From a virus (Duplodnaviria > Heunggongvirae > Uroviricota > Caudoviricetes), in the IMG/VR virus record IMGVR_UViG_2908959467_000004: a DNA stretch of 42,273 nucleotides; one strand, given 5' to 3'. The stretch's first letter is position 1, and each line of letters starts with the position of its first letter. Positions 8,079 to 42,273 of this stretch are shown here, in pieces. The notes beneath the pieces were generated by a model. The model was given only the letters and a program-made list of their open reading frames with translations, did no database searches and was not told where the DNA came from. Made by a program: the position numbers and the translations under genes.

Positions 8079-8081
8079 TGC

Positions 8082-9143: not shown

Positions 9144-9145
9144 GC

Positions 9146-9448
9146 TTACTCCGTTGATACCAGTAAATGACTGCGCCCGCCCAGGTCAGTTTTCGTGGGA
9201 TAATCCTGTGTGTTGTCATCGCAGACCACCAACAGCTTAAAACCAAGTCCCATACAGGCGTACTGCGCCAGCAGATCAGCGCCAGTGACGAGAGGAATAC
9301 CGGAGATTACCGGCTCCCCTCTGTCATTCAGCAGGTCCATAATCCAGTAAAGATCGCGCCATATGATGCTAATCCGCCAGGTGACACCACCCAGGACGAT
9401 GCTGAACTGCTGGTTGTCCGCTGTCAGCGGAATTTCCTGAATTGTCAT
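9146..9448 (-). CDS. tail-associated protein
   Basis: 100 aa; stop/start coupled within the tail operon. Confidence 0.4.
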   Translation of the reverse strand: MTIQEIPLTADNQQFSIVLGGVTWRISIIWRDLYWIMDLLNDRGEPVISGIPLVTGADLLAQYACMGLGFKLLVVCDDNTQDYPTKTDLGGRSHLLVSTE

Positions 9449-10035
9449 TAGCCGCCCCCCAGTAATGACGCCACGTTACCCGTGATGCTTTTCAGCAGTG
9501 AATTATCTGGAGGCTTTATGGTTTTGTTGCCGCTATTCTGTACCGCCGACGTGCTGGCCCCTTCCTTCATGTTGGTTTTATCCGCGACGGTAATCTGCTG
9601 TGTCCGGGAGATAAGGACCTCCCTCAGGGTGAGGACGGCGGACAGGACGTTTTCGGTTGTCTTGTCCGTCGTCACTTCCAGCGCCCGGATCAACATGTTG
9701 CTGTACAGTCGTTTACCGGTTACCACATCGAAGGGGATACGGCTTTCCTGCAGATCCAGTAGCTCCTGATACGTCTGCTGAGGACTCAGGCCGAGCAGGC
9801 TGGTAGCCGTCAGATTACTGGCAAAATCCAGCAATGCGCCGCCACCGGCGAAACCAACCTCCATCACCACTTCTGACGGTTTTTTATAGGCATGATCAGC
9901 GACAGCGGCCCCGACTTCTACCGGATGCTCGGTTATTTCAAGCATATCTGTATGCTTCTCTGAAATAACAACACTGGGAACAATCATTCCTATTTTTCTG
10001 CTCTGCTGATGAAAAAGTGTAGAGAGAATATCCAC
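9448..10035 (-). CDS. tail-associated protein immediately downstream of the tape measure
   Basis: 195 aa; start overlaps the tape measure stop. Confidence 0.4.
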   Translation of the reverse strand: MDILSTLFHQQSRKIGMIVPSVVISEKHTDMLEITEHPVEVGAAVADHAYKKPSEVVMEVGFAGGGALLDFASNLTATSLLGLSPQQTYQELLDLQESRIPFDVVTGKRLYSNMLIRALEVTTDKTTENVLSAVLTLREVLISRTQQITVADKTNMKEGASTSAVQNSGNKTIKPPDNSLLKSITGNVASLLGGG

Positions 10036-26239: not shown

Positions 26240-26440
26240 TCCTTGTTCGGCCTGTACCAGCCTGTACCCACCTGTACCAGCTCTTTTCAAACCTTTTCCC
26301 CAAGCGACTTATATATATATATGGGGTTCTTAGTAATTAGGTTGGTACAGTTGGTACAGTTGGTACTGGCCTTTAAATTCAATTAGTTAAATGTACCAAC
26401 CTCTATTTTGAGGCTGGTACAGGTTGGGACACCGCCTCAA
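26240..26440. repeat. putative replication origin: TGTACCA iterons in both orientations flanking an alternating AT tract
   Basis: CCTGTACC(A/C)(G/A) x3 at 26251-26280; (TA)n tract ~26308-26325; GTTGGTACA x3 at 26339-26367; TGTACCAAC at 26392-26400; CCTGTACCAGCC (minus) at 26417-26428 inside the primase 3' end. Confidence 0.6.
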
Positions 26441-28595
26441 AAATTCGAGTCATTTTTCCGTCAACACGACGTTGAACACGCTTATACCCGCAATTTTGCA
26501 AAACATTACTAATTCGCATTTCTTCGCGTTTTCCGATGCGGTCAGGATTTAGCCCAATCGCATCACGCAAAACATCACTTGCGCGTAAAAATTCGCAATT
26601 TCGCGGAAGTTCATTAGTCATCAGGTCGGGCGTGTCGAGCCATTTCTCTACCGTTTCAAGCCAAGCATCCTTGATGGTGTACTGTTCATGGACACTCGCT
26701 GCCAGTTGTTCAGCCTCACGGAACTGGATACCCCCCAGACGCTGAAACACCTCACGAGCCTCAGCCCAAAGTAAAAGGAGATCTCTTTTTATCGCTTTCA
26801 CGTCGACTTTCGACACTTCCACGGGGAGCCAGCGACGGTTACCAGTCTTGTCCGCAAGGAATTCGTCCTCATTGGTGGTACCAACGAACACCAGGCGACG
26901 AGGAAACTGGGTGGCGAACTCCCGGTATTTCGGGATCCAGTTTTCGTGAGTACGCGTCACAAACGCTTTGATTGACTCCAGCTCTTTGGTATTAAGTCCG
27001 CGCAGTTCACCAATCTCTGCCACCAGCCGACCACGCATTTTTCGAGCGAGATCATCGTCTTTTTCGGCAAAAGAGATTTCAGTAAAAAACGCAGGATCAG
27101 GGCTCAGTGCCTCCACTCCGGAAGACTTACCGCAGCCCTGCGGACCAACGAGGATCGGCACCATATCCGCTTTGATGCCTGGCTCCAGTACTCGCCCCGC
27201 CAACGCGGTCCACATGTACATAGACACCGCACGGGTATAAGGCGTGTCGGCGGTACCGAAGTGCGTATGGTAGAAACATTCGATGCGCGGCACGCCATCC
27301 CACTCCAGTCCGTTCAGCCAGGTGATCGCTGAATCGAATGGTTGTTCATCGGCTGCAAGTAACACCACATCGCGAATAAGTTCACGACCAACAGGTTTAA
27401 ATCCCCGCTTTTCCATCGTGATGCGCAGGCGCGCATAATCCGCATCGGTGAATGCCCGCCATTGTCCGGATCCTGCAGGGGCAAACATGATTTCGTCGCG
27501 GAACTGGTCAAAGCGAATATCGATGTCCACAAAATCAGGGCGTACTACTGCTTTGGCTGCGTTGCTGATGGTTGCCTCGATACGCCCCCATTTATCACGC
27601 TCGAAAGCAGGCAGCGGTAAAGGTTCCGCCACTTCGGTGCTGGTCAGATCTTCGAAATCGTCGTTGCGGATCCCGATGGCATTAAGGAAATCTCCGTCAT
27701 CACGATGCGCACAACTGGCATGCAGGCATTTAAAATGCCCCTGCTCAAAGCCCGCGGTTCCCGCAGGAAAATAAACTGTGCTTGTTGGATCGCCCCCGCT
27801 ACTGTGGCCGTCTTCAAACGGACAGCGGATATATCGTTCACCATTTGCGCCATCCAGCAGCGTCCAGCCATTGGCATCAAGATATTCAGCTGTATCATCC
27901 GTCGCGCCGGGCGTGAATGCTGATCGGTCGCGCATCTTCGTGTTGCCCGCTTCGGTGGTTACCGACACAGGGAGTTGTTCAGCCAGGCGCTGCCACAGCG
28001 TTTCAAGCTGCTCACCAGTAATAGCCGGAGGTTCATCCGGCAAACCGCCGTCCCATTCAATACGCGCGCCGCTGCTGTGCGTACCGCAGGCAACGAACTG
28101 CTGCCCGTTCGCCAGCAACTCGATAATGCCCATATCCCCCGCCAGGCGATGGATACGCTTACGGAAATCACCATCAACGGCCAGCAGATACAGACACTTA
28201 TTACTGTTTGCTCGCCAGCGTCGCGGCGGCAACTCCCCCAGAAGTTGCACAAGCGTTTTGCGAATATCTGCCTGAATGTCTTCATCTTCGCTATCGCAGT
28301 CCAGCGCCAGCCAGCCATGGCCTGTACGCACGCAGATGCCATAATCCGGTTCATTCGACCAGCGGGCAAAATCATGCTCAGTAACAACATGCCCAGTCCA
28401 TTGAGCAATACCGGTGACCTGGCGGTCCCGGTTATAGCGACTCGGCGTCTTACCCAACGCTTTCAGTTTACTATCAGGGGATATGGTCGCACTGGGGTTA
28501 CATACAACTGGGAGAAGATGATCAGTTCTCCCCAATACCAGGTCGAAATGAAACCACTCATCAGGCGTAGCTCCCCATGGTTTGCTATCGGACAT
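26403..28595 (-). CDS. replicative primase-helicase (P4 alpha/D5-like, with primase-polymerase-like N-terminus)
   Basis: 730 aa; Walker A LVGPQGCGKSS in the C-terminal half; Cys/His cluster CPFEDGHSSGG...HFKCLHASCAH; first large gene of the Cro-side operon. Confidence 0.8.
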   Translation of the reverse strand: MSDSKPWGATPDEWFHFDLVLGRTDHLLPVVCNPSATISPDSKLKALGKTPSRYNRDRQVTGIAQWTGHVVTEHDFARWSNEPDYGICVRTGHGWLALDCDSEDEDIQADIRKTLVQLLGELPPRRWRANSNKCLYLLAVDGDFRKRIHRLAGDMGIIELLANGQQFVACGTHSSGARIEWDGGLPDEPPAITGEQLETLWQRLAEQLPVSVTTEAGNTKMRDRSAFTPGATDDTAEYLDANGWTLLDGANGERYIRCPFEDGHSSGGDPTSTVYFPAGTAGFEQGHFKCLHASCAHRDDGDFLNAIGIRNDDFEDLTSTEVAEPLPLPAFERDKWGRIEATISNAAKAVVRPDFVDIDIRFDQFRDEIMFAPAGSGQWRAFTDADYARLRITMEKRGFKPVGRELIRDVVLLAADEQPFDSAITWLNGLEWDGVPRIECFYHTHFGTADTPYTRAVSMYMWTALAGRVLEPGIKADMVPILVGPQGCGKSSGVEALSPDPAFFTEISFAEKDDDLARKMRGRLVAEIGELRGLNTKELESIKAFVTRTHENWIPKYREFATQFPRRLVFVGTTNEDEFLADKTGNRRWLPVEVSKVDVKAIKRDLLLLWAEAREVFQRLGGIQFREAEQLAASVHEQYTIKDAWLETVEKWLDTPDLMTNELPRNCEFLRASDVLRDAIGLNPDRIGKREEMRISNVLQNCGYKRVQRRVDGKMTRIFEAVSQPVPASK

Positions 28596-28598
28596 GGG

Positions 28599-28811
28599 TT
28601 AAGCCTTTTTATCGTTTTGTGAGCCATACAACAGCCAATTAGGGTCGCAATCCAATGCTATAGACATTTCAAGAAGATAACGTGGCCGAGCAATAACACC
28701 ACTTTCAATTCTGTTTATTGCCTGCTGGCTCACTCCTGTGAGCTCAGCCAACGTAACTTGCGTCATTTTGAGTTCTTTACGTCGTTCTTTTACTCGGGTC
28801 GCTAAGGTCAT
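28599..28811 (-). CDS. Cro-like HTH repressor (XRE family)
   Basis: 70 aa from ATG at 28811 (SD GAGGTG); HTH MTQVTLAELTGVSQQAINRIESG; divergent from the CI-like gene and first in the lytic operon. Confidence 0.7.
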   Translation of the reverse strand: MTLATRVKERRKELKMTQVTLAELTGVSQQAINRIESGVIARPRYLLEMSIALDCDPNWLLYGSQNDKKA

Positions 28812-28838
28812 TGCTTTCACCTCATACAATTTTAGTGG

Positions 28839-28868
28839 TATTTAGCAACAACAAACGAGGTTTGTCAA
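28839..28868 (-). promoter_or_regulatory. pR-like promoter with overlapping operator
   Basis: Minus strand -35 TTGACA (28868-28863), 18-bp spacer, -10 TAAATA (28844-28839); inverted repeat GTATTTAGCAA/TTGTCAAATAC (28838-28872) overlaps both hexamers. Confidence 0.5.
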
Positions 28869-28880
28869 ATACAACAAAAA

Positions 28881-28909
28881 TTGTTTTTAATGTGGGGATA
28901 CACATTAAT
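28881..28909 (+). promoter_or_regulatory. pRM-like promoter with operator palindrome
   Basis: -35 TTGTTT (28881-28886), 17-bp spacer, -10 ATTAAT (28904-28909); perfect palindrome TTAATGTG-N6-CACATTAA at 28887-28908; ATACAA-N6-TTGTTT at 28869-28886. Confidence 0.4.
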
Positions 28910-28931: not shown

Positions 28932-29555
28932 ATGTCTCTCGCAGCCCGTTTTAAAGCACGTCGTTTGGAATTAGGAATGACTCAAGTGGAAGTAGCGAAT
29001 TCTGCAGGGGTTAGCCAACAATCCATAGAATCCATCGAAAGTGGACGAACCAGAAAGCCACGCAATCTTCTGGATCTGGCTAAGGCCTTGAAATGTAGCC
29101 CAGACTGGCTACTGAACGGTAAAAATATTATGCCTCTCGCGGAGATAAGTACCAGACGCATACCTATATTAAGTTACGTTCAGGCAGGAGAGCTTACAGA
29201 AGCAAGAGACATAACAGATCTGACAGGGGAATTTGAATATATTTTGGCAGACTCTGACATTCCAGAAACATGCTTCGCATTACGTATCGATGGCGACAGC
29301 ATGCAACCAGAGTTTAAAGAAGGAGACATTGTTATCATCGATCCTGATCTATGTCCTGCACCAGGGGAGTTTGTTGTCGCCAAAAACGACGGTCACGAAG
29401 CTACATTTAAAAAATACCGTCCATTAGGAATCGGCATCGACGACTTTGAATTAATCCCCCTAAATCCTGATTACCCTATTTTTCGTAGTGCAGATATGAA
29501 CTTACAGATCATAGGTGTAATGATCGAACACCGTATTTACCGCCGTAAACGTTAG
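28932..29555 (+). CDS. CI-like repressor (HTH plus LexA/S24 peptidase domain)
   Basis: 207 aa from ATG at 28932 (SD AAGGA); HTH MTQVEVANSAGVSQQSIESIESG; S24 motifs GDSMQP and FKKY (Ser/Lys dyad). Confidence 0.8.
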   Translation: MSLAARFKARRLELGMTQVEVANSAGVSQQSIESIESGRTRKPRNLLDLAKALKCSPDWLLNGKNIMPLAEISTRRIPILSYVQAGELTEARDITDLTGEFEYILADSDIPETCFALRIDGDSMQPEFKEGDIVIIDPDLCPAPGEFVVAKNDGHEATFKKYRPLGIGIDDFELIPLNPDYPIFRSADMNLQIIGVMIEHRIYRRKR

Positions 29556-29574
29556 TATTCCCACCGTAAATATC

Positions 29575-29594
29575 GGGAGGCGTAACAGCCTCCC
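29575..29594 (+). terminator. GC-rich hairpin downstream of the CI-like gene (weak terminator candidate)
   Basis: GGGAGGC-GTAACA-GCCTCCC; the following tract is not strongly U-rich. Confidence 0.3.
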
Positions 29595-29682
29595 TTACCC
29601 CATTTGTAAAGTCTTACAAATTAAATTCACTTAAATATCAATAAAGTAGTATTCACACCCCCACAAAATACCACATCTGTGG

Positions 29683-29711
29683 TTTACACAATACAACTCA
29701 AATTGTATCTT
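29683..29711 (+). promoter_or_regulatory. pL-like early promoter with operator
   Basis: -35 TTTACA, 17-bp spacer, -10 TATCTT; palindrome ATACAA-N6-TTGTAT (29691-29708) overlaps it and matches the motif in the Cro/CI intergenic region; further palindrome TTTGTAA-N4-TTACAAA at 29603-29620. Confidence 0.45.
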
Positions 29712-29878: not shown

Positions 29879-30073
29879 GTGAAAACGTATAAACCGCTCA
29901 AAGGTGAATGCCCTGCTTGCCAAACACAGCTTCTGACACCAAAGCCAAAACGATACCAAATCAACGAATGTTATGAGCACTGCCCTGGATGTGGTGCTTT
30001 CCTGCATACCATTGCAACGCACTGGCGTGTCCGCTTCAACCTTGTGGTACCACGTACGCACAATACCAACTGA
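29879..30073 (+). CDS. small zinc-ribbon protein (possible regulator)
   Basis: 64 aa; GTG start with SD GAGGAA; two CxxC pairs (CPAC ... CPGC); followed by an intrinsic terminator. Confidence 0.5.
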   Translation: MKTYKPLKGECPACQTQLLTPKPKRYQINECYEHCPGCGAFLHTIATHWRVRFNLVVPRTHNTN

Positions 30074-30104
30074 ATCATCCATGTAATTGCTGTGTGTAGT
30101 CTTT

Positions 30105-30130
30105 GCCCGCCTCAAGTGACGGGCTTTTTT
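30105..30130 (+). terminator. Rho-independent terminator (tL1-like position)
   Basis: GCCCG-loop-CGGGC followed by TTTTTT. Confidence 0.55.
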
Positions 30131-30189
30131 ATGTCTGAAAGCGCACTCGCAACAGCGTGCTCCCCGATATGAAAAAAGGAATACAACCG

Positions 30190-30339
30190 ATGAAACCTGA
30201 ACACATCCATCGACTGACGGGGCGCGATGTTCTCCGTTATCGCCGTAAAAACTTCGATTTGATGACCGGTCTGGCCGTTGCCACTGCGCTCGGTCTGATC
30301 ATCACTTTCATTCTCCTTGTAGCGAGGACCACAGTATGA
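30190..30339 (+). CDS. small membrane protein
   Basis: 49 aa from ATG at 30190 (SD AAGGA); C-terminal hydrophobic helix LAVATALGLIITFILLV; stop overlaps the next start. Confidence 0.4.
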   Translation: MKPEHIHRLTGRDVLRYRRKNFDLMTGLAVATALGLIITFILLVARTTV

Positions 30340-31244
30340 GTTTAGAAACCAGTCTAGAACTTAATAATCAACTTCTGGCACAACATAATGCGCTGCTTGA
30401 ACGTCTTATCCGCACAATGGCATCAGGCATTGTTATGCATCCTGACACGATTTCACGAGTGCAGGAATGTCGGGATACAGCAACTGAAACTGAAACTGAA
30501 AATATGTCAGCGGCAATGACACTGGATGATCTGGAGTTCAGCGACGTTATCGCACTGGCTGGTTTCTACCCGGTAGCCACCCCTATCACAGAAGACATGC
30601 TGCAACGTGCTGTTGCCTACCGTGATGCTGAAGGCGATAAACGAGTAGTTCAGATTGATGCTCTCGACAGCGCATTGCAGGGCGTCAAACGAGCCAGGGC
30701 GCTGCTTAAACCTGCTCTCCTGGACCTGTCCCGTAACATCCTTAAGTTCTGGGACGACCTGCCAACCATCGGCGAGCGACGTGCTTTTGCCGAGCAGCTA
30801 CTTGATGCACCTGCGGATGGGCGTGATGAAGTTAAGCCGAAAAAGGCCAGTAACAAAGATGGAGAACGCACGGGGCCGTTTTACGTCAAAAATGTATCCG
30901 GCACAGCAGCCAGTGAACTCCACACCTTACGCAAGTTGAACGAGATGCTGAAAAAAGGCCATATCGAGATCAACCGTGTTGAGTACCTTCAGCTGCAGGA
31001 AGAATTTGCACGCAGAGACGCAGCAAATTCCAGCCAGAATAATGACGCAAAAGATGACCATACAATTGATTTCGCGGCACTACGCAAACAAGCTGAAGGG
31101 TTGATCCTCCAGTTAGCAAAAGGGGGCTACCGGGCAGAAGCTATTGCAATTCTGGAAAAACAGGGAGCCAGGAAACTTGGTGAAGTAACGGATGAAAATC
31201 TCGCTGAAGTAATCACCCTAGCTGAAAAAGCACTGGAGGGTTAA
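30336..31244 (+). CDS. hypothetical early protein
   Basis: 302 aa; acidic, helical; first large gene of the early operon. Confidence 0.45.
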
Positions 31245-31246
31245 TC

Positions 31247-32548
31247 ATGCCAGACGTTCACGCACAACTTTCTCCATCATCAGCGCATCGATGGATGCGC
31301 TGCCCAGGAAGTCTGGCGCTGGAGGCCACACAACCGGATAAAGAAACAACTTTTGCAATCGAGGGCACTGCAGCGCACGCGCTTGCTGAAAAAGTTCTAC
31401 GAAACAGGCAAAGCCACCCGGAACACTACGCCGGATGCAATGTTTCTATGTTTCTCGGCTCATACCCCCTTCGCGAAAATCCTGATGATACATCTGGCCC
31501 ACAGGTGGATGATGAAATGGTCGAAGCCGTCGGCCGGTATGTTGATACGGTCTGGACTCTTGCAAAGAATAATGAACTATTGGTTGAACAACGTGTTGAT
31601 TTCTCACATATAACGGGTGTGGAAGAATCTTTCGGAACTGCCGACGGCATAATCATCGCGGGTAACGAATTACAAATCCACGACCTGAAATATGGCAAAG
31701 GCGTCCGCATTGATGCAGAACAAAATGAGCAACTACAACTGTATGCTCTGGGTGCGCTCGAACAATTCAGCATGCTGTATGACTTTGAGACTGTAAGATT
31801 ATTTATTCACCAGCCAAGGCTCAACCACGTTTCAGAATGGTCGTTAACCGTGCAGGAACTTCAGTCTTTCGGTGAACGAGCACAGGAGGCCGCAACCAGT
31901 GCGATCCTTGTTCTCAATATTGCTGAATGCGAAAGCATTGAGACACTACCGCTGGAAAACTTCATACCTGGAGAAAAACAGTGCCGCTTCTGTAAAGCAA
32001 AAGCTATTTGCACTGCCCAGAAAATGCAGCATTTACAAACAGCGGCCAGCGACTTTGAAGATCTGACAAAGCCTGTCAGCGAAATAATCACCAATGCCAG
32101 CGCACGTGTACCTCTGTTAACCACTGAGCAGCTTGCGGAGATCTATAGCCAGGCCGACTTTATTGAATCCTGGCTAAAGGCAGTACGGGACCGGGTTCAC
32201 AATGAACTCAATGCCGGACATCCGGTACCGGGGTTTAAACTGGTAACAGGAAAACAAGGTAACCGGGCCTGGAGTGATGAAGAGGCAGCTCGCGCACTTC
32301 TGAAGGACCAGTTCAGGTACAAAACTGAAGAAGTATTCGACTTTAAACTTATTAGTCCCACAAAAGCCGAAAAACTTATCAAAAAGGCCAGTCCGCGCCG
32401 TTGGTCAAAAGTCGAGGCACTGATAACACGAGCTGATGGTAAACCCACCGTCGTTCCCGAGTCAGACCCACGCCCCGCACTCGATATCAACCCTGTAAAT
32501 GATTTCGACGACGTATCCGACGATACGCTAACCGCAGACCTCATCTGA
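31247..32548 (+). CDS. PD-(D/E)XK nuclease, DUF2800/Cas4-like
   Basis: 433 aa; N-terminal [14 protein letters not shown] motif; downstream Cys cluster [10 protein letters not shown]. Confidence 0.7.
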
Positions 32549-32563
32549 TTTAAGGAAATACCC

Positions 32564-33112
32564 ATGAAACTGAAGTTGAACAATGTTCGTCTGGCCTTCC
32601 CGTCTCTGTTTGAAGCTAAAACTGTAAACGGCGAAGGCGATCCGCGTTTCTCCGCAGTATTTTTAATGTCACCCAAACACCCACAACTGGAAGAAATCCG
32701 TAAAGCTATGAAGCAGGTAGCGAAGGAAAAATGGGGGGAGAAGTGGGAGTCCATTTATAACCAGCTGGAGAAAAAACTCAATCTGTGCCTGCATGATGGT
32801 GATGAAAAAGCAGAGTATGAAGGCTTTCCCGGCAATTTCTTCCTGAACGCTGCTAACAAAGCGCGCCCAGCTGTTCTTGATCGCGATCGTTCGCCACTAA
32901 TTCAGGCTGATGGACGTCCCTATGCAGGGTGCTATGTAAACGCCGTTATCGATATCTGGGCACAGGACAATAATTTCGGTAAACGCATTAATGCCTCACT
33001 CGGCGGAGTCCAGTTCCTGCGAGACGGCGATGCATTCGCTGGCGGCGGAGTGGCAAGCGCTGACGATTTCGACGATATCAGCGAAGGTGCTGATGCTGAA
33101 GCACTAATTTAA
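32564..33112 (+). CDS. ssDNA-binding-like protein, DUF2815 family
   Basis: 182 aa; N-terminus MKLKLNNVRLAFPSLFEAK; paired with the DUF2800-like nuclease and DNA polymerase. Confidence 0.6.
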   Translation: MKLKLNNVRLAFPSLFEAKTVNGEGDPRFSAVFLMSPKHPQLEEIRKAMKQVAKEKWGEKWESIYNQLEKKLNLCLHDGDEKAEYEGFPGNFFLNAANKARPAVLDRDRSPLIQADGRPYAGCYVNAVIDIWAQDNNFGKRINASLGGVQFLRDGDAFAGGGVASADDFDDISEGADAEALI

Positions 33113-33133
33113 AAATATTCATCCCCCAGCTAC

Positions 33134-33802
33134 GTGCTGGGGGATCTCATGAGGGAAAGAATAATGTCACAGCCCGTATTAACTAATTACCTTAAAACTC
33201 AAATCATCAATAACGCACTTGAGAAAGCGGGTATCCCCAAACGTAAATCAGCACTACGAGCTGCTCGTGTTGAATGGGCCGAACGTGTTCGGCTTGCAGC
33301 TATCGGGGGCGTAGAGAAAGAAGCTGAAATATTAAAAAATATAAAAAAAATAGAAACACTGGTATCAAAATTCCCCGAAGCATTAAAAACCGCCAATAAC
33401 ATTATCAGGGAAGAGTGTTACATGTGTCTGAATCTGGCAGGTTCTCGGGTTACCGTCTATTTCAACGGTAACTACCGAGGATATGAATCAGGGTCACCAG
33501 ACCATATTCACAAAATCGCGCCGGGGGAATTTACCCTTCTGGCAAATGACCCTCTAGTTACAGAGTTTTACGGGTTTGATACACTTTATGAGCAGATACA
33601 GAGCGATGAGTCAGACATTCGACAGAATGTCAGCGCTGCACTCAGTAAAGTGCGCACAGTTAAGCGCCTGCTGGAAGAGTGGCCTGAAGCTAAAGAACTT
33701 CTGCCAGCCGATGCACCATCTGCTCCGCTTCCGCCAGCTATACGACGCGAAACTCTCAACGAAATGATCGGCCTCCCTTCTGACGAAGGGGTAGATGCTT
33801 AA
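33134..33802 (+). CDS. hypothetical protein
   Basis: 222-aa ORF; internal ATG at 33164 is an alternative start. Confidence 0.4.
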   Translation: MLGDLMRERIMSQPVLTNYLKTQIINNALEKAGIPKRKSALRAARVEWAERVRLAAIGGVEKEAEILKNIKKIETLVSKFPEALKTANNIIREECYMCLNLAGSRVTVYFNGNYRGYESGSPDHIHKIAPGEFTLLANDPLVTEFYGFDTLYEQIQSDESDIRQNVSAALSKVRTVKRLLEEWPEAKELLPADAPSAPLPPAIRRETLNEMIGLPSDEGVDA

Positions 33803-33869
33803 TATTTCTTATAACAAAGGCTGGCTTAAGAAAATAGTTATCCAAACCAGCCTACCGCAATACTAAAAA

Positions 33870-34139
33870 TTAAAATTCATTGAATTTAAAAAGACATTTC
33901 CCTATTGGATTGCCATAGTCTCTACATACCGAAATGCTGTCCCATACAGGCTGAGCCAAACACCCAAGAAAGAACCCAATAAGCGCAAAAATTATAATTT
34001 TGGGAAGAACACGATCCTTAGGACCTTCTTCACGTTCGAGCCATGCGCCACCAGCCCGAACTATTCTCCCTAAAATATAAAGAATGGGGAAAGCAATAAT
34101 ACCTATCAATGAAAGTATTCCGATACCAAAGCTAAACAC
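33870..34139 (-). CDS. small integral membrane protein, oppositely oriented moron
   Basis: 89 aa; hydrophobic helices ILSLIGIIAFPILYIL and IIIFALIGFFLGCLA; AT-rich; antisense to the replication operon. Confidence 0.5.
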   Translation of the reverse strand: MFSFGIGILSLIGIIAFPILYILGRIVRAGGAWLEREEGPKDRVLPKIIIFALIGFFLGCLAQPVWDSISVCRDYGNPIGKCLFKFNEF

Positions 34140-34195
34140 CGCCGTCTCCTTGTTTATTTACACCTACATAACCATATATCACACAAGGTTATTTT

Positions 34196-36259
34196 ATGTC
34201 CAATATACTATGGGGTGACCTAGAAACCTATTGCGAAATCCCTATTACGAACGGTACCCATGCGTATGCCGAAGGCGTTGAAGTGATGCTGTTCGCATGG
34301 GCTATCAACGACGAGCCCGTAAACGTGTGGGATATCACTGCCGGTGGTGGTATTCCACACGGCTTATACGAAGCAATCGCAGCCCCTGAAACCCTGCTTT
34401 ATTTTCATAACTCTCACTTCGACCGCACCGTCCTGCGTTATGCAATGCCGCGCCTGGCACCGCCAGTCGAACGTTGGCGCGACACAATGGTGCAGGCGCT
34501 GGCGCACGGTCTCCCGGGGTCTCTGGGGGAACTCTGCGAAGTACTAGGCGTCCCGCAAGACAAAGCGAAGGACAAAGAAGGTAAAGCGCTGATCCAGCTG
34601 TTCTGTAAGCCACGCCCGAAAAACAGCAAACTGCGCCGGGCCACCAGCAAAACCCACCCGGAAGAATGGCGGCGCTTTGTTGCTTACGCCGGACTGGATA
34701 TCGAGGCAATGCGCGAAGTCTATAAACGTCTGCCGAAGTGGAATTATCAGGGGACAGAACTGGCGCTCTGGCATCGTGATCAGCAGATCAACGACCGGGG
34801 CGTCTGCATGGACATTCAACTCGCGCGCGCTGCGATCGAAGCGGTAGACCAGGAGCAAAAGCGCCTGGCAAAGCGTACACAGGAAATGACTGATGGCGAA
34901 GTGCAGGCAGCAACACAACGGGACGCGTTGATTAAGCACATCGTTGAATCCTACGGTGTGGAGCTACCAGACATGCAACGCAGTACTCTGGAACGTCGTA
35001 TAGCCGACCCCGATTTACCATCTGCCGTGAAAGAACTGCTGGCTATCCGCCTGCAGGCCAGTACTACCAGCACCAGTAAATACAAGGCACTGATGAAAGG
35101 CGTAAGCCACGACGGGCGCTTACGCGGTACGCTACAGTTCTGCGGGGCGTCACGTACCGGTCGTTGGGCCGGACGGCTATTCCAGCCCCAGAACCTTCCC
35201 CGCCCTTCACTAAAACAGGAACAAATAGACGAAGGCATCGAAGCACTGAAAGCCGGATGTGCAGACCTGCTGTTTGACAATATCATGGAACTAACCAGTT
35301 CAGCGTTACGTGGCTGCATTATCGCGCCAACAGGCAAAAAACTGGTGGTAAGTGACTTGTCGAACATTGAAGGCCGTATGCTGGCATGGCTGGCGGGAGA
35401 AGAATGGAAACTGAATGCATTCAGAGAGTACGACGCCGGAACGGGTCCGGACTTATATAAACTGGCGTATGCAAAAGCTTTCGATATTGCACCAGATGAT
35501 GTTGATAAACACATGCGTCAGATCGGTAAAGTCATGGAACTCGGTCTGGGTTATGGCGGTGGTGTATCGGCTTTCATCACTTTTGCTCTGGTTTACGGTC
35601 TCGATCTCGACGAGCTGGCGAACGCCGCACTGCCAAACATTCCCCGCGATGTTATCCGCGAGGCGAAAAGCTGGTACAACGAATCGGTTAAACGTAAGTC
35701 GACCTTTGGCCTGTCCGAGCGTGTATTCATCGCATGTGACTCGCTCAAGCGCCTGTGGCGCAGGGCGCACCCGGCGACCTGCGATTTCTGGTACGAACTG
35801 GAGCGCACCGTCCGCACTGCAATCGCCACACCGCAAAAAACATTGTATTGCGGTTATCTTAAAATCCGCCGCGATGGCGCGTGGCTGCGCATACAGCTAC
35901 CATCCGGACGCGCTGTATGCTACCCCTCTCCGGTTATCGAAAAAGGGAATATCACCTATATGGGTGTTAACTCTTATTCGCGTAAATGGCAACGACTCAA
36001 AACCTACGGCGGAAAGCTGGTAGAGAACGTCACCCAGGCGGCCGCCCGCGACGTTCTGGCCGGAAACATGCCGCTTATCGAAGATGCCGGTTACAGCATT
36101 GTGCTGACGGTACACGACGAGGTGATCACCGAAGCACCTGACACAGAAGATTTCAACGATAAAGAGCTTTCCGCGCTTCTCTCCAATAACCCCGAATGGG
36201 CGCCCGATATCCCACTGAACGCTGGCGGTTTTGAGGCGTACCACTACCGTAAGGATTAA
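34196..36259 (+). CDS. DNA polymerase, family A (PolA-like)
   Basis: 687 aa; motif B-like [16 protein letters not shown] and motif C-like VHDEV; N-terminal exonuclease-like region. Confidence 0.85.
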
Positions 36260-36264
36260 TCGCT

Positions 36265-36468
36265 ATGACTGTAATCAAAACGCATACCGGAACGGTTATT
36301 ACCCGCACCGGTGAAAAGCAGGTGCAATTGCATCAAAACGCGACAACGTGGGTGGCTGGCCCAAAAGAGTATTACTACAAAGACACTGGCCGCCGCGGTG
36401 GTGCTGTCGGTGTCCGCACTCGTCTGGTGCTGAGCAGCATCCGCCCAATCGAAGCAAAGCAGGAGTAA
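36265..36468 (+). CDS. hypothetical small protein
   Basis: 67-aa ORF directly after the polymerase gene. Confidence 0.35.
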   Translation: MTVIKTHTGTVITRTGEKQVQLHQNATTWVAGPKEYYYKDTGRRGGAVGVRTRLVLSSIRPIEAKQE

Positions 36469-36473
36469 CCCCT

Positions 36474-36695
36474 ATGTCATTTAAATATCGGGACAGTCCG
36501 CTTTATTACCGGGCTGCGAGGGAGGCCTTGCGCCTTGAGCAGTCCGGCGAATATGACCGGGCAGCGAAGGTCTGGGCCAAGGCTAACCGCCAGTCACGTA
36601 ACGAACTGAATCAGGACTGGAGCGAACGCCGGTCTGATTTTTGTCTGATGCAGAACATGCGCGAAAAGCGTAAGGCGGTGAGCGATGACTTGTGA
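36474..36695 (+). CDS. small regulator-like protein (possibly ANR-family-like)
   Basis: 73 aa from ATG at 36474 (SD AGGAG); basic helical protein with C-terminal FC motif. Confidence 0.35.
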   Translation: MSFKYRDSPLYYRAAREALRLEQSGEYDRAAKVWAKANRQSRNELNQDWSERRSDFCLMQNMREKRKAVSDDL

Positions 36696-37167
36696 GCAGA
36701 CCATTCTTGACATGTGCTGCGGCTCTCGTATGTTTTGGTTCGACAAGGAGGACAAGCGCGCCGTGTTCAGTGATATCCGCGCCGAGCAGCATGAGCTTTG
36801 CGACGGTCGCCAGTTGGTTATAAGTCCGGACCTTATAGCTGATTTCCGCGCCCTTCCCTTTGCCGATAACACTTTCCCTGTCGTCGTTTTCGATCCGCCG
36901 CACCTCGAGCGCGTCGGCGATAACGCGTGGATGAGGAAAAAGTACGGGCGGCTCAACAAAGAAACATGGCGCGATGATCTTCGCGACGGCTTCGCCGAAG
37001 CATTCAGGGTATTGCGGACCCACGGTGTACTCATATTCAAATGGAACGAAACGCAGATCCCGGTAAGCAATATCTTGGCGCTGACCGACGAGAAGCCGGC
37101 CATATGGCAACGAACCGTAAAAGCCGACAAAACCCACTGGGTTATTTTCGTCAAAGGTGTGGAATGA
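36685..37167 (+). CDS. small SAM-dependent methyltransferase-like protein
   Basis: 160 aa; N-terminal ILDMCCGS (motif I-like) and VVFDPPH (DPPY-like motif IV). Confidence 0.5.
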   Translation: MTCEQTILDMCCGSRMFWFDKEDKRAVFSDIRAEQHELCDGRQLVISPDLIADFRALPFADNTFPVVVFDPPHLERVGDNAWMRKKYGRLNKETWRDDLRDGFAEAFRVLRTHGVLIFKWNETQIPVSNILALTDEKPAIWQRTVKADKTHWVIFVKGVE

Positions 37168-37460
37168 TGGCCTACGAACGTGAAAGCCTTATCGAAAAGC
37201 ACCTCGTCGCCGAAGTGAAAAAGGCTGGCGGGGTCGCCTTTAAGTTCGTGTCACCCGGTCGCCGCTCGGTACCGGATCGCATTGTCCTGCTACCCGGCGG
37301 TCGCATCGTCTTTGTCGAATGCAAAGCGCCAGGCAAACCACCACGGCCTGACCAGTTACGCGAGCACGAACGGCTGCGCGCGTTGGGCTTTACCGTGGTG
37401 GTATTAGATAGCAAAAATCTGGAGGGGATATTGTGCGGGGAGCCTATTACAACGAAATAG
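37164..37460 (+). CDS. VRR-NUC domain nuclease
   Basis: 98 aa from ATGATG at 37164 overlapping the upstream stop; PD-(D/E)XK-like core DRIVLL...VFVECK. Confidence 0.7.
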   Translation: MMAYERESLIEKHLVAEVKKAGGVAFKFVSPGRRSVPDRIVLLPGGRIVFVECKAPGKPPRPDQLREHERLRALGFTVVVLDSKNLEGILCGEPITTK

Positions 37461-38461
37461 ACCCTAACGCAGCACAATGGCTGCGTAACCTTATTGCTGC
37501 AGGTCATATCGCCCCGGGTGAAGTTGATGAAAGGAGTATCGAAGATGTCGCACCAGACGACTTGCGCGGATTCACACAGTGCCATTTCTTCGCCGGGATC
37601 GGCGTCTGGTCTTATGCTCTGCGTCTGGCCGGATGGCCGGATAACAAACCGGTCTGGACAGGAAGTTGCCCGTGCCAGCCTTTCAGCTCGGCTGGTAAAG
37701 GCGCTGGGTTTGATGACGAGCGGCACCTATGGCCAGCACTATTCCACCTCATCAGCGAGCGACGCCCTAAGCTGGTATTTGGCGAACAGGTTGCGGGAGT
37801 CAATGCCTGGTTCGATCTTGTACAAACTGACGTGGAAGCAGTGGACTACGCCTTTGGGCTTGTCCCGTTTCCGGCTGCGGGCGTCGGTGCCCCGCATATC
37901 CGAGATAGAGCGTATTGGGTGGCCGACGCCAGCGGCGAGCGATCACAGCGGTGGCGAAAGCGCCTCAATAGCATTGAGGAAGATGTCTGGAGATCGTCGA
38001 CCGTCCGGCAACACGCTACACAGCTCCCTGCGGAATTTTGCTCACCTAGCGGGGTGGTACACCCCAACCTGCAACACAAACCCACAGCCGGAGACAAAAC
38101 GCGGTCTAGAAACCTTAGCGGGACTATCCAGATTAGCGGGATGGCCGACAGTGACGACGATCGACAACAACCAAGTTCGTGCCGAGGGCGCAGCGGCCAA
38201 TCATACCGAACGGGGAACGACCCTCGGCGGCGCTGCGAGAATCTGCGGCCCAATACGATTAACGGCTGCTGGGATGGTGCTGACTGGCTCCTCTGCCGGG
38301 ATGGTCGCTGGCGGCCAGTTGAATCCGGCACATGCCCGTTGGCTAATGGGATTACCTCCAGAGTGGGACGACTGCGCGCCTACGGCAACGCGATAGTCGC
38401 ACCAGCTGCCGCAACATTCATCCGCTCGTTTATGGAATGCGCAGGATACGACCTTATTTAA
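37433..38461 (+). CDS. DNA (cytosine-5) methyltransferase, Dcm-like
   Basis: 342 aa; motif I FFAGIGV, motif [15 protein letters not shown], motif VIII-like [10 protein letters not shown], motif X-like YGNAIVAP; a second long ORF (37494..38396, +1 frame) with MTase-like motifs overlaps it. Confidence 0.7.
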
Positions 38462-38778
38462 TGCCACTCACATCTGGCATGATACCGTCCAGAAGGTAAT
38501 TGCTTATATACAACGGAGCCGCCCATGGCATAAGTATAAGCATGAAGTTTTGTCCAGAAGTCCCCATAAACTAGTATTGGGGCTAAAAATTTTGGATCGC
38601 TAACCATAGATGTAGCAGGAAGCTCGAAACCTTTAGAAAGAATGTTTACCAGTGAAGGGTAATTTTCAAAATCAGTGCTATTCCCGCCCACCTCTAAAGC
38701 ATCCAGTTCAAAGTCGAGCACTCCACCATTTTTGTAATACTCCGGAACAGTTAACCCTGATGTTAACAAAGTAGCCAT
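38458..38778 (-). CDS. hypothetical protein, oppositely oriented moron
   Basis: 106 aa; strong SD AGGAGG 8 nt upstream; lower GC; divergent from the helicase gene. Confidence 0.5.
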   Translation of the reverse strand: MATLLTSGLTVPEYYKNGGVLDFELDALEVGGNSTDFENYPSLVNILSKGFELPATSMVSDPKFLAPILVYGDFWTKLHAYTYAMGGSVVYKQLPSGRYHARCEWH

Positions 38779-38812
38779 TAAACAATCCTCCTGAATTTTA
38801 AAGGGTTACATT

Positions 38813-40207
38813 ATGCCCAAAGTTTTCACGCCTCGCCCCTACCAAGATCTAATTATCAACCACGAAATCGACATTCACCGCTGCAACATCTGGGCAGGGA
38901 TGGGGATGGGTAAAACCGTAGCGACACTCACCACGCTGGAAGATCTTTTCATGGCGGGCTCAGAGACACAGCCCGCGCTGGTCCTCGCGCCCCTACGCGT
39001 TGCAGCAAGCACATGGCCGGATGAAGCGCTGAAATGGGGGCATCTGCGCAATATCGAGGTGCAGCCGATTGTTGGTAACGCCAAAGCGCGCTCTGCAGCG
39101 CTGGCGAACAGCAACGCGAGCGTGTTCACCATCAACTACGATAACCTTGTCTGGCTGGTTGAGGAATTGGGAGAACGATGGCCGTTCGGTACTGTCATTC
39201 CAGATGAAAGCACCCGGCTAAAATCCTTCCGGCTGCGAGGTGGTGGTAAGCGCGCGGCGGCGCTGGGCAAAGTGGCGCATAAGTATGTCCAGCGCTGGAT
39301 AAATCTCACCGGTACGCCAGCACCGAACGGCCTGGTAGATTTGTGGGGACAATTGTGGTTTGTGGACCAGGGGCAACGTCTCGGGCGCACTTACGGCGCG
39401 TTTACCTCACGCTGGTTCAACTCGATACAGTTTCCGGGGCAGAGCTGGACCAAACTGGAGCCGTTTGCTCACTCACAGGCTGAAATACAGCGAGCGTTAG
39501 CCGATGTGACCCTCTCGCTGGATGCGGCCGACTGGTTCGATATCAAAGACCCCATCCATAACGTAATCCGCGTGGATATGCCGCCGAAGGCCCGTCAGCA
39601 GTATCGTGAAATGGAAAAGGAAATGTTCCTCGAGCTGAATGGCGAAGGCATCGAAGCACCGAACGCCGCGGCAAAGACACTGAAATGTCTGCAAATCGCC
39701 AGTGGCGCAGTATACACAGACGACACCGGAAGTTGGTCAGAACTGCATGACACCAAACTACAAGCGCTGGACAGCATACTGACCGAAGCAGCTGGCGCAC
39801 CTGTGCTGGTTGCTTATCACTGGAAACACGATCTTGAACGCTTGCTTAAAGCATTCCCTCGCGGTCGTCACCTCGACCAGGATCCACAGACACTGCGCGA
39901 CTGGAATTCCGGAAAGATTCCTGTTCTCTTTGCACACCCAGCCAGCGCGGGCCACGGCCTGAACATGCAGGACGGCGGAAACATACTGGTGTTTTTCTCG
40001 CACTGGTGGGATCTGGAGCAGTACCAACAAATTATCGAACGCATCGGGCCAACCCGGCAGATTCAGGCCGGACACAACCGCCCGGTGTTCATTCACCACA
40101 TTATCGCCGCCGACACTATGGACGAAATGGTGATGGAGCGGCGCAACTCAAAACGAACAGTGCAGGACATCCTGCTCGATGCCATGAAAAAGAGAGGTAT
40201 AGCATGA
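38813..40207 (+). CDS. SNF2/DEAD-like helicase
   Basis: 464 aa; PYQ motif, Walker A GMGKT, DExx box IPDEST; C-terminal helicase domain. Confidence 0.8.
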   Translation: MPKVFTPRPYQDLIINHEIDIHRCNIWAGMGMGKTVATLTTLEDLFMAGSETQPALVLAPLRVAASTWPDEALKWGHLRNIEVQPIVGNAKARSAALANSNASVFTINYDNLVWLVEELGERWPFGTVIPDESTRLKSFRLRGGGKRAAALGKVAHKYVQRWINLTGTPAPNGLVDLWGQLWFVDQGQRLGRTYGAFTSRWFNSIQFPGQSWTKLEPFAHSQAEIQRALADVTLSLDAADWFDIKDPIHNVIRVDMPPKARQQYREMEKEMFLELNGEGIEAPNAAAKTLKCLQIASGAVYTDDTGSWSELHDTKLQALDSILTEAAGAPVLVAYHWKHDLERLLKAFPRGRHLDQDPQTLRDWNSGKIPVLFAHPASAGHGLNMQDGGNILVFFSHWWDLEQYQQIIERIGPTRQIQAGHNRPVFIHHIIAADTMDEMVMERRNSKRTVQDILLDAMKKRGIA

Positions 40208-40404
40208 GCGAGAAACCCGACGATTTACTCACCCCGGATGAAGTATGCCAAAAGTTAGGTATTACACAGAAAACGCTATGTGAGTGGAATATTAAGCATC
40301 GTCATCGGGCTATCCTGGCACCAATTCGTTTCAGTGCAAAAGTAGTTCGTTATGAGCGCCGCAATGTCGACGCTTTTATTCAAAAGTGTCGCAGCCGGTA
40401 TTAA
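40204..40404 (+). CDS. excisionase/AlpA-like HTH protein
   Basis: 66 aa from ATG overlapping the helicase stop (ATGA); HTH LTPDEVCQKLGITQKTLCEW; convergent with and adjacent to integrase. Confidence 0.65.
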   Translation: MSEKPDDLLTPDEVCQKLGITQKTLCEWNIKHRHRAILAPIRFSAKVVRYERRNVDAFIQKCRSRY

Positions 40405-41804
40405 CCTCGCCGCCGTAGCAATGCCACCTGCGCAAGTATGCTCCGCTCGTGAGCCTCGAAAGCTTCGCGCTTTAACGCAATCTCTTCCTGTAAAATCTCA
40501 TCAGAAAAGTCGTAATGTTCTGCCATCGGGTCATCTGACTTACTGGAGTGGTGAAGGCAAAGGAGGCTGATTTCCCTTCGGTCTGATCGGGAATAGCCTC
40601 TTTCCTTCATCAAGGCAATAACATTGCTCTTAAGGAATTTACGGCACATCGTATTAAATGCACCGTCTTTCCCTTTAACAGTCCCATCATGTTTTATTCC
40701 TTTTACAGCCCCGTCCGGGCTGTATGTTTTCACCAGCTTATCCAGTGATCGTTTTGAAAATGGCTGCATTGGATCACGTGGCTGCAAAAATACATAATCC
40801 CTGTTGCACTCAGGAACTGAATCACGCCATGCTTTCTGCTCGTCGATAATCCGCCGGATCTCCGGCGTTATTGGCAGGCGGAAAGCCTTTTGTGTTTTCA
40901 TAGCCCCTCGCATGCCGATAACCCCTTCAGGATAAACAATTTCGCCAGTCTCCTCGTGAACGTAGTCCCAGCGCAGGTTATGGACATTAATCGGACGAAC
41001 GCCGGTGATGATCATGAAGCGAACAGCATTCTTCTGGTGTACAGAGGTGCAGGCTGCAACATTGAGCCAGAGCCGGGCGATTGACTCAATATCGGTAAAA
41101 AGCCGTGTGGGGGTGGGTTTCTGTACGCGGGAGGAAACATAATCATCTGGCAGACTGGCGGCAACATTGCGGCCATTGCAAAGAGTAGGTGCGCAGAACT
41201 TCCAGAACCGACGGAGCTCGGCAAACAACTCCAGGGCGTTATTGTTCGAGCGAGTGGCGATCCACTCGTCCAGCACTTCCACCAGCCGATTGTATGTTAC
41301 GTCGCTGAACACCTCGCGCTCGCCGAACGTGGCTTTAATCCGGTCGATACGCACCCCGTAGGTTGTGAAACTGTCCGGGCTCAGCTTCTGCCGGGCGACT
41401 TTGGCTTTGAGGTCATCCCGGTACATTTCCAGCGCTGCATGTACGGACTCTGCCCGCAGGCCACCGTCAGCCATACCTAGCGCTTTTTCGCGCGCCAGCT
41501 GGATAGCGAGCTCCGGCCACTCGCCGAGCTTTTTACCTTTGAGGCCCATCTTTTTTGGAAACTCGGCGTAAAATGTAACCTTACCGGCTTTGCTGAAATC
41601 GATACGGAGATAGTTCTCTTTTTCGTATTTGGAACGGCGAGCCACGCCGGAAGCAGCGAGGATGATTTTGGCGGCAGCAACACAGATTTTCATGTGTGCG
41701 CTGGTATAGGGGGGTTTACAGGCGTCCCATTTTTCAGATGCGGCTAAAACATCGTCATTATTGGGGCTATCCGGATTATGTGTTACAGTTCGCGGCATTC
41801 TCAA
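40401..41804 (-). CDS. tyrosine integrase
   Basis: 467 aa; C-terminal catalytic region with conserved Arg (ITGVRPINV), His (LCLHHS) and Tyr (AEHYDF); terminal gene next to host DNA. Confidence 0.85.
   Translation of the reverse strand: MRMPRTVTHNPDSPNNDDVLAASEKWDACKPPYTSAHMKICVAAAKIILAASGVARRSKYEKENYLRIDFSKAGKVTFYAEFPKKMGLKGKKLGEWPELAIQLAREKALGMADGGLRAESVHAALEMYRDDLKAKVARQKLSPDSFTTYGVRIDRIKATFGEREVFSDVTYNRLVEVLDEWIATRSNNNALELFAELRRFWKFCAPTLCNGRNVAASLPDDYVSSRVQKPTPTRLFTDIESIARLWLNVAACTSVHQKNAVRFMIITGVRPINVHNLRWDYVHEETGEIVYPEGVIGMRGAMKTQKAFRLPITPEIRRIIDEQKAWRDSVPECNRDYVFLQPRDPMQPFSKRSLDKLVKTYSPDGAVKGIKHDGTVKGKDGAFNTMCRKFLKSNVIALMKERGYSRSDRREISLLCLHHSSKSDDPMAEHYDFSDEILQEEIALKREAFEAHERSILAQVALLRRRG

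Positions 41805-42003: not shown

Positions 42004-42273
<270 letters not shown>

Follow-up and report, generated by a model that had tools for sequence, protein, structure and literature searches.

An early-left operon of probable lambda pL type, carrying a replication cassette and methyltransferase genes as cargo, in an Escherichia coli prophage next to yfhL

The IMG/VR virus record IMGVR_UViG_2908959467_000004, a stretch of 42,273 nucleotides referred to here in its full length as the window, carries on its plus strand an operon (30336-40207) with genes for a DUF2800 nuclease, a DUF2815 single-stranded DNA-binding protein (SSB), a family A DNA polymerase (PolA), a VRR-NUC nuclease, a SNF2 helicase and two DNA methyltransferases. 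A first-pass annotation, made from the sequence alone, had taken this operon for a second replication and recombination module, separate from the arm that encodes the primase-helicase and governed by an unusual regulatory logic. The observation was confirmed, whereas its interpretation was only partly supported. The stretch is very probably a SOS-inducible temperate Escherichia coli prophage of the myovirus type with an early-left operon like that of lambda pL, in which the replisome is split over two arms and the methyltransferase genes are cargo. The prophage lies next to yfhL, which occupies the window from position 42013 onward.

Both ends of the span 30336-40207 are true open reading frame (ORF) boundaries, every gene that had been named is present on the plus strand, and profile searches upheld the families assigned to them (DUF2800, DUF2815, PolA, VRR-NUC, SNF2, both methyltransferases and the small protein ANR). 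The gene list was thus correct in its identities but had VRR-NUC and SNF2 out of order, the true sequence being PolA, a 67-amino-acid (aa) ORF, ANR, the small methyltransferase, VRR-NUC, the C5-cytosine (C5) methyltransferase and SNF2; it was also incomplete, as an Nmad5 gene, two minus-strand ORFs and the 49-aa, 67-aa and excisionase-like ORFs had been missed. The DUF2800 protein (31247-32548) is a PD-(D/E)XK exonuclease (PF10926, 1.6e-110; phrog_69, exonuclease, 2.1e-136) with Cas4-like cysteines at C19, C246, C249 and C255, and its gene is adjacent to that of the DUF2815 protein, an Enc34-type (gp2.5-like) single-stranded DNA-binding and annealing protein (32564-33112; PF10991, 2.4e-44; phrog_112, 2.4e-56). 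The polymerase (34196-36259; phrog_17, 6.9e-126; PF00476, 3.8e-14) possesses a 3'-5' exonuclease domain, and retains intact motifs for Exo I-III and Pol A/B/C (DLET at residues 8-11, HNSHFD at 71-76, YAGLD at 164-168, DLSNIEGR at 387-394, RQIGKV...GLGYG at 441-454 and VHDE at 639-642). VRR-NUC (37167-37460; phrog_93, 5.6e-32), a probable junction-resolving enzyme encoded by a core gene, shows a D38...E52-x-K54 motif, its Pfam match being sub-threshold (18 bits versus 23.8), and the SNF2-family helicase, likewise from a core gene (38813-40207; phrog_62, 4.3e-159; PF00176), has GMGKT and DEST motifs.

Profile searches detected no primase or replicative helicase in the operon. The window as a whole encodes a single such protein, a VapE-type primase-helicase (26403-28595, minus strand; PF05272, 2.3e-60; phrog_256, helicase, 7.7e-147; phrog_1156, primase, 2.6e-40), whose gene is situated 1.7 kb upstream of the operon on the opposite strand, in the cro arm. 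For comparison, every window protein was mapped onto 80 close IMG/VR sequences (PolA 87-100% identical), of which 58 loci with at least 5 kb of upstream sequence were used for the position of VapE, and 72 loci spanning DUF2815 through SNF2 for all counts of core and cargo genes given below. VapE was divergent upstream in 53 of the 58 relatives, at a distance of 1.6-3.2 kb from the operon; the interval contains a switch of the cro/cI type, the immunity of which varies among the relatives. As the operon has neither primase nor replicative helicase and VapE is its conserved neighbour, the two arms are best regarded as jointly encoding a single replisome, with the immunity region between them.

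Synteny with other phages carrying DUF2800, DUF2815 and PolA genes agreed with this conclusion. The gene order in the Salmonella Jerseyvirus FSL SP-101 (primase-helicase, helix-turn-helix (HTH) protein, DUF2800, DUF2815, PolA, VRR-NUC, methyltransferase, SNF2) is colinear with that of the window at amino acid identities of 32% (DUF2800), 24% (DUF2815), 44% (PolA), 42% (VRR-NUC) and 51% (SNF2); the primase-helicase adjoins the cassette, and the methyltransferase sits in the slot between VRR-NUC and SNF2. The window differs in that its primase-helicase is of the VapE type, without detectable sequence similarity to that of the Jerseyvirus, and is divergently transcribed over the cro/cI switch, in that its methyltransferases belong to other families, and in having ANR and a 302-aa protein as lineage-specific core genes. 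The methyltransferase and the primase-helicase of the Jerseyvirus are not homologous to those of the window, so that the two loci agree in position here but not in the genes themselves. In Xanthomonas phiXaf18 a VapE primase is found in one module with the SNF2 helicase and the polymerase, and the cassette occurs also in Enc34-type, Triavirus and Carmenvirus phages, those of Triavirus, Carmenvirus and phiXaf18 being variants. Relatives of DUF2800 were present in 1763 of 50,697 phage records. The DUF2800-DUF2815-PolA-VRR-NUC-SNF2 series is a widespread phage cassette with a primase-helicase as its usual neighbour, and an annotation of the window should treat its primase-helicase together with the polymerase operon as parts of one replisome divided by the immunity switch.

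The immunity region itself consists of divergent cro-like and cI-like genes; about 600 bp separate cI from the plus-strand operon on its right. The Cro-like HTH protein (28599-28811, minus strand; HTH_3, 2.1e-14) has 70 aa from the RefSeq start and is a coding sequence (CDS) in RefSeq; the CI-like repressor (28932-29555, plus strand) is a member of the LexA family (Peptidase_S24, 1.8e-21, plus HTH_3) with a QAG cleavage site and GDSM and FKK motifs. Between the two genes lies an OR-like region (28824-28886) comprising two copies of an 18-bp operator, ATACAAn6TTGTAT, at 28824-28841 and 28869-28886 with one mismatch each, and a third, perfect copy of this palindrome is located downstream of cI at 29691-29708. 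At up to one mismatch there are three such sites in the 42-kb window against 0.10 expected, none of 100 shuffled sequences reached three, and all three are confined to the two regulatory gaps; the operators at both places are candidate targets of CI. In addition, a 37-nucleotide segment of the cro/cI gap (28848-28884) is directly repeated after cI (29670-29706) with 70% identity. The perfect operator spans the spacer and the −10 element of a pL-like promoter candidate (29683-29711, plus strand; TTTACA-17-TATCTT); the gap from cI to the operon has no other site that resembles a promoter. Directly after the cI stop codon a presumably functional hairpin, GGGAGGC-n-GCCTCCC (29574-29596, plus strand), lacks a clear U-tract. 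Promoter and terminator scans within the operon gave no excess over chance, and for this reason we claim no internal transcription units.

The same arrangement recurred with other sequences in the induced phage vB_EcoM-606R2 (ON470579). This phage is heteroimmune, its cI being 26% identical to that of the window, and none of the window operators is present; its genome holds only two exact copies of its own putative operator word ATAACGCATA, one in the cro/cI gap and one just past cI, and the second copy is placed within a strong TTGACG-17-TATAAA promoter. The regions concerned in this sequence (L002) are 31212-31221, 32031-32040 and 32049-32058, and the promoter overlaps an annotated minus-strand 'hypothetical' CDS. 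A lambdoid prophage of Proteus (L007), which was detected by way of its Nmad5 gene, follows the logic of the window as well: its cI-side operon encodes Nmad5 and a counterpart of the small methyltransferase at 71% identity together with ERF, SSB, an ExoX-like nuclease and a Dam methylase, and its cro side encodes O and DnaB. In lambda, a separately repressed early operon on the cI side carries the exonuclease, the annealing protein and a distal excision function. The window operon resembles it in being located on the cI side under a promoter of its own that would be repressor-controlled through an operator common with the cro/cI gap, in encoding an exonuclease and an annealing protein, in having a terminator between promoter and genes, and in ending with an excisionase-like gene. 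The latter encodes a 66-aa HTH protein (40204-40404, plus strand; phrog_4745, 4e-27; phrog_66, excisionase, 9.8e-6; HTH_17, 1.3e-5, sub-threshold) and, at the distal end of the operon, abuts the gene of a tyrosine integrase (40401-41804, minus strand). Unlike in lambda, exo/bet/gam are replaced by a complete set of polymerase, junction nuclease and helicase genes, the window yielded no analogue of N or nut, and the integrase gene is convergent on the opposite strand. Because this layout matches the OR/OL arrangement of lambda, the regulatory logic that the first-pass annotation called unusual is in fact the usual one.

The rival reading, in which the operon is a second module for replication and recombination that functions independently and shares a transcript with the repressor gene under an unusual regulation, would be in keeping with cI and the operon lying on one strand at so short a distance and with the primase-helicase being on the opposite strand. 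We nevertheless consider it improbable, as such a module would itself supply neither primase nor replicative helicase, VapE is retained in divergent position beside the cassette, a primase-helicase stands directly upstream in the Jerseyvirus, and VapE, SNF2 and PolA share one module in phiXaf18. Moreover, downstream of cI come the hairpin, the promoter-like site with its operator and a strong, conserved terminator, and lambda and the Proteus prophage have the same layout.

This terminator belongs to the one unexpected feature of the stretch, and the sole element that might repay experiment. It is an RprA-like leader, lying downstream of the promoter-like site and ahead of the first ORF, in which a module similar to the 3' part of RprA (30071-30134, plus strand) ends in a strong intrinsic terminator (30096-30134) and marks the 5' boundary of the operon. 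The match to RF00034 covers 30025-30134 with 49.7 bits (E 1.4e-5), which is below the gathering score of 70, and nothing in the window was detected by Rfam at gathering thresholds; compared with RprA, the 3' half is conserved and the 5' half is unrelated. The 3' 46 nucleotides (30085-30130) matched the annotated host rprA, which is present in essentially all E. coli genomes, at 84.8%, and about 150 E. coli genomes contain a copy of 30085-30130 at 90% identity or more, a figure near the number of prophage carriers. The module reads CUGAAUCAUCC...AUUGCUGUGUGUAGUCUUUGCCC, followed by the hairpin and a U-tract, and its core word AATTGCTGTGTGTAGTCTTTGCCC agrees with the Rfam consensus of RprA. The combination of the word ATTGCTGTGTGTAGTCTTTGCCC, hairpin and U-tract was found in the window and in 64 of 81 related sequences examined, and while the sequence 5' of the module is of many unrelated types among the relatives, heteroimmune ones included, the module itself is invariant. 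The stem varies among them (GCCCGTC/GACGGGC, GCCCCTC/GAGGGGC, GCCTGTC/GACAGGC and GCCCGC/GCGGGC) with compensatory changes of G:C to C:G and of C:G to T:A. The stretch ACGAAUU of RprA, which pairs with rpoS, reads UGUAAUU at this position of the phage module.

The simplest role of the module is probably to block read-through from cI into the operon in the lysogen. More speculatively, and with rather low confidence on our part, the phage might use the Hfq-binding 3' end of the host RprA for a small RNA of its own or for a regulated terminator; upon induction, a terminated leader RNA would then be released to act in trans on targets in the host, or else the module would be the site at which read-through into the replication operon is decided. 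The trans-acting leader is modelled on StxS of the Shiga-toxin phages, a terminated phage leader that acts as a small RNA and with which the module has in common that a short terminated leader stands in front of a phage operon (PMC7547250). The start of the RprA match is overlapped by the 3' end of a 64-aa ORF (29879-30073, plus strand) of the CxxC...CxxC zinc-ribbon type, which gave weak zinc-ribbon matches, is unannotated in RefSeq, has a good Shine-Dalgarno sequence and occurs only in some relatives as variable cargo.

The distribution of the genes among the 72 loci separated a core from variable cargo. VRR-NUC was present in all 72, ANR in 70, the 302-aa protein in 68, DUF2800 in 65 and the 49-aa ORF in 64, as against 20 for the 67-aa ORF, 18 for Nmad5, nine for a 106-aa ORF and six for an 89-aa ORF. 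The small and the C5 methyltransferase were each found at eight loci and together at three. The cargo is accommodated in three slots: from SSB to PolA (33113-34195 in the window, 0.1-1.9 kb among the relatives), from ANR to VRR-NUC (36696-37166, 0-0.8 kb) and from VRR-NUC to SNF2 (37461-38812, 0-2.0 kb), which hold Nmad5, the small methyltransferase and the C5 methyltransferase, respectively, in the window. In complete E. coli genomes the slots are occupied by DUF4406 (presumably nucleoside deoxyribosyltransferase-like), DUF7446 or an Arc-family gene, or are empty, and in 606R2 and the related induced phages 611R5 and 689R2 they contain a minus-strand gene and a TIR-like protein (36070-36699 and 38874-41286 in L002). 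Since methyltransferases, Nmad5, TIR-like, DUF4406 and DUF7446 proteins replace one another there, the slots are a handy place to look for anti-defence and defence genes. Insertion sequence elements were also seen among the alternative cargo of relatives. The left edge of the first slot is marked by a perfect 10-bp GC-rich inverted repeat, ATCCCCCAGC...GCTGGGGGAT (33121-33145), which reads as a putative terminator of leftward transcription.

Enterotoxigenic E. coli H10407 has the C5 methyltransferase without Nmad5, and in uropathogenic E. coli (UPEC) 26-1 Nmad5 occurs with neither of the methyltransferases, which are optional cargo and independent of each other. The 89-aa gene occurred exclusively alongside Nmad5 (6/6 loci, p = 1e-4), and the 106-aa gene was accompanied by the C5 methyltransferase at only three of its loci. 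The first-pass annotation had grouped ANR with the two methyltransferases as evidence of DNA modification, and such a trio was rejected on the distribution just described: a gene retained at nearly every locus has no particular link to methyltransferases that are found at one locus in nine. By the same comparison, the invariably present VRR-NUC is a core recombination nuclease and not a restriction partner.

The small methyltransferase (36685-37167, plus strand; PADLOC MTase_II, 8.9e-72, and oMTase, 2.8e-48; phrog_954, 4.4e-84) is a 160-aa S-adenosylmethionine-dependent DNA methyltransferase with a motif I (LDMCCGS, residues 8-14) followed by DPPH (70-73), both of which are invariant in 24 homologues. 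In amino-methyltransferases this pair of motifs predicts methylation of N6-adenine or N4-cytosine. The family counts 7339 homologues of about 160 aa in phages and enterobacterial genomes; a literature search yielded no paper on it. The C5 enzyme (37433-38461, plus strand; PF00145, 1.5e-12; phrog_363, 3.1e-90) is one of a family with over 8000 members, aligns to residues 74-171 of M.HhaI and has the catalytic motifs IV, VI, VIII and X (PCQ at 80-82, EQV at 118-120, RDR at 157-159 and GNA at 318-320), which are invariant in 22 homologues; in these, residues 1-165 and the last 65 or so are nearly invariant. The protein starts at motif II, as position 27 of the TIGR00675 profile aligns to residue 7, and a motif I-like FFAGIG (52-57, within FFAGIG...ALRLAG, 52-68) is found between motifs III and IV. 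The resulting order II-III-I-IV is an apparent rather than a confirmed reordering, based on reading of the sequence and on the start points of the profile, and short-segment PDB searches as well as BLASTP against the N-terminus of M.HhaI gave no alignment.

No restriction-enzyme-like gene was recognised beside either methyltransferase in profile and PADLOC searches, which suggests that both are DNA methyltransferases of the orphan type. Like the orphan phage methyltransferases known from REBASE-type models in PADLOC and from PHROGs 954 and 363, they combine strong profile matches with the lack of a recognisable restriction-enzyme-like neighbour; they differ from those families in the odd motif order and hypervariable middle of the C5 enzyme and in the small enzyme having only 160 aa. 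Since they would be expressed together with the replication genes, methylation of progeny DNA before packaging is their most likely function, and evasion of restriction by this methylation, as proposed earlier, is a reasonable guess that stands as a prediction.

Several points weigh against parts of this interpretation. The promoter match past cI is by itself at chance level (three found versus 3.4 expected), so that the candidate draws its support from the coincidence with the operator. Family searches gave no N-like protein and Rfam no put-like RNA, the RprA match being the only one, and the only antiterminator found in the window is Q, on the other arm, and induced transcription would nevertheless have to pass the leader terminator. 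Cargo genes showed weak positive associations with one another (Fisher p = 0.02-0.04), values which are uncorrected for shared descent among loci several of which are near-identical. As regards the enzymes, a target-recognition domain is not evident in the small one, nor does it have a relative of solved structure: sequence and profile searches of the PDB returned only spurious metallo-beta-lactamase matches. The middle of the C5 enzyme is hypervariable, of low complexity and of variable length, and motif I is absent from its usual N-terminal place. AlphaFold2 models were too poor to be used (predicted local distance difference test scores of 53 for the small and 40 for the C5 enzyme), because the alignments were shallow and built from close homologues. 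Recurring (L/M)A(D/N)xxxxRQQ-like stretches were noticed in the C5 middle, where a structured target-recognition domain is expected.

The location of VRR-NUC between both methyltransferase genes, its membership of the PD-(D/E)XK superfamily, to which most type II restriction enzymes belong, and the match of the small enzyme to the PADLOC type II methyltransferase model might together indicate a compact restriction-modification or defence system. We judge this extremely unlikely: VRR-NUC is far more widely distributed than either methyltransferase, the Jerseyvirus VRR-NUC in the same position is annotated as a Holliday-junction resolvase, and no nuclease or defence-effector model of PADLOC matched any of the ORFs tested.

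The Nmad5-family protein (33164-33802, plus strand; PF18757, 3.6e-56, 190.9 bits versus a gathering score of 27) was found in 57 of 5426 complete E. coli genomes. As the family is named for an association with nucleotide modification, Nmad5 might constitute, together with the dedicated polymerase and the two methyltransferases, a single pathway for a hypermodified base, and the Nmad5 gene of M6-like phages indeed precedes the polymerase gene and has genes for thymidine hypermodification as neighbours (PMC9476957). A point mutation in nmad5 of a Dhillonvirus allowed escape from Tmn immunity, and this is the only experimental record of Nmad5; in the same study, however, deletion of nmad5 left the sensitivity to Tmn unchanged (PMC11846954). 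Nmad5 accompanied the small methyltransferase at five of the eight loci of the latter, a weak association (p = 0.02), and both are present in the Proteus prophage. Against this, the genes vary independently of each other, as H10407 and 26-1 illustrate, and profile searches of the operon ORFs found no hydroxymethylase, kinase, glycosyltransferase or radical-SAM gene. Two distant Nmad5 homologues were located in phages without the PolA cassette (in the regions 8001-11299 of the Proteus prophage L007 and 8001-8612 of L006), and neither the window protein nor the homologues at 31-35% identity are accompanied by base-modification enzymes, which weakens the assumption contained in the name. A link of Nmad5 to base modification is thus unsupported by this locus, and a single hypermodification pathway appears very improbable to us; a looser cooperation of Nmad5 with the two methyltransferases in non-canonical DNA modification is less likely than the small-RNA or regulated-terminator role of the RprA-like module.

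The features of the pL-type operon can be combined into the following model. In the lysogen, the LexA-family CI would bind the 18-bp operators both in the cro/cI gap and over the promoter just past cI, and the RprA-like terminator would keep read-through from cI out of the operon. Upon SOS induction, self-cleavage of CI would allow both arms to fire. The leftward arm is predicted to supply Cro, the VapE primase-helicase and Q, and the rightward arm the Cas4-like DUF2800 exonuclease, the gp2.5-like SSB and annealing protein, the proofreading polymerase, the VRR-NUC junction nuclease, the SNF2 helicase and, last, the excisionase-like protein, the terminator being passed or overridden at this stage. 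The cassette and its usual primase-helicase neighbour would then function as a single replication module, with interchangeable cargo in the three slots, here Nmad5, the 160-aa DPPH (amino-type) methyltransferase and the C5 methyltransferase. Newly made phage DNA may be methylated by the orphan methyltransferases before packaging and might thereby be protected from restriction in the next host.

The stretch matched 167 of the 5426 complete E. coli genomes and was chromosomal in every case. RefSeq prophages at yfhL, such as those of UPEC F11, BH100 and SMBL, are 98.6-98.8% identical across the entire stretch and are annotated with the same genes under identical names. The induced phages vB_EcoM-606R2, 611R5 and 689R2 (ON470579, ON470588 and ON470582) have the core in common at 97% identity over 66% of the stretch, and differ in the immunity region, in the slot contents mentioned above, in the absence of Nmad5 and of both methyltransferases, and in having ANR only in part. 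A literature search on these three phages, on the RefSeq protein accessions and on Nmad2-4 retrieved nothing useful, and one on yfhL yielded only papers of a general kind on prophages and Stx phages. As RefSeq, isolated phages and over 1700 phage genomes already cover the cassette, the prophage and both methyltransferase families, the locus matters little as a discovery: it is well-catalogued biology in a textbook lambdoid layout and holds no new system.

The remaining genes comprise a minus-strand block for structural proteins, lysis and the Q antiterminator at about 2.4 to 26.1 kb, and several small or uncharacterised ORFs of the operon region. The 49-aa first ORF (30190-30339, plus strand; phrog_11981), a RefSeq CDS, has a hydrophobic C-terminus, and is followed by the 302-aa core protein of unknown function (30336-31244, plus strand; phrog_6784, 5e-179), for which no Pfam or NCBIfam match was obtained. 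Within the first slot, the AT-rich cargo gene on the minus strand (33870-34139) specifies the 89-aa hydrophobic protein, probably a membrane protein, which had no family match. The variable 67-aa protein (36265-36468, plus strand) corresponds to phrog_1226, and the 106-aa protein of unknown function (38458-38778, minus strand; phrog_28127) is encoded convergently with the C5 methyltransferase gene. PADLOC returned no defence-system match for the small ORFs of unknown function, the 302-aa protein or Nmad5. The ANR-family small regulator (36474-36695, plus strand; NF033650, 72.5 bits versus a cutoff of 32), a core protein of this cassette, has weak similarity to PerC and is found also in the Klebsiella phage LASTA, which hints at a phage-related role of the family.

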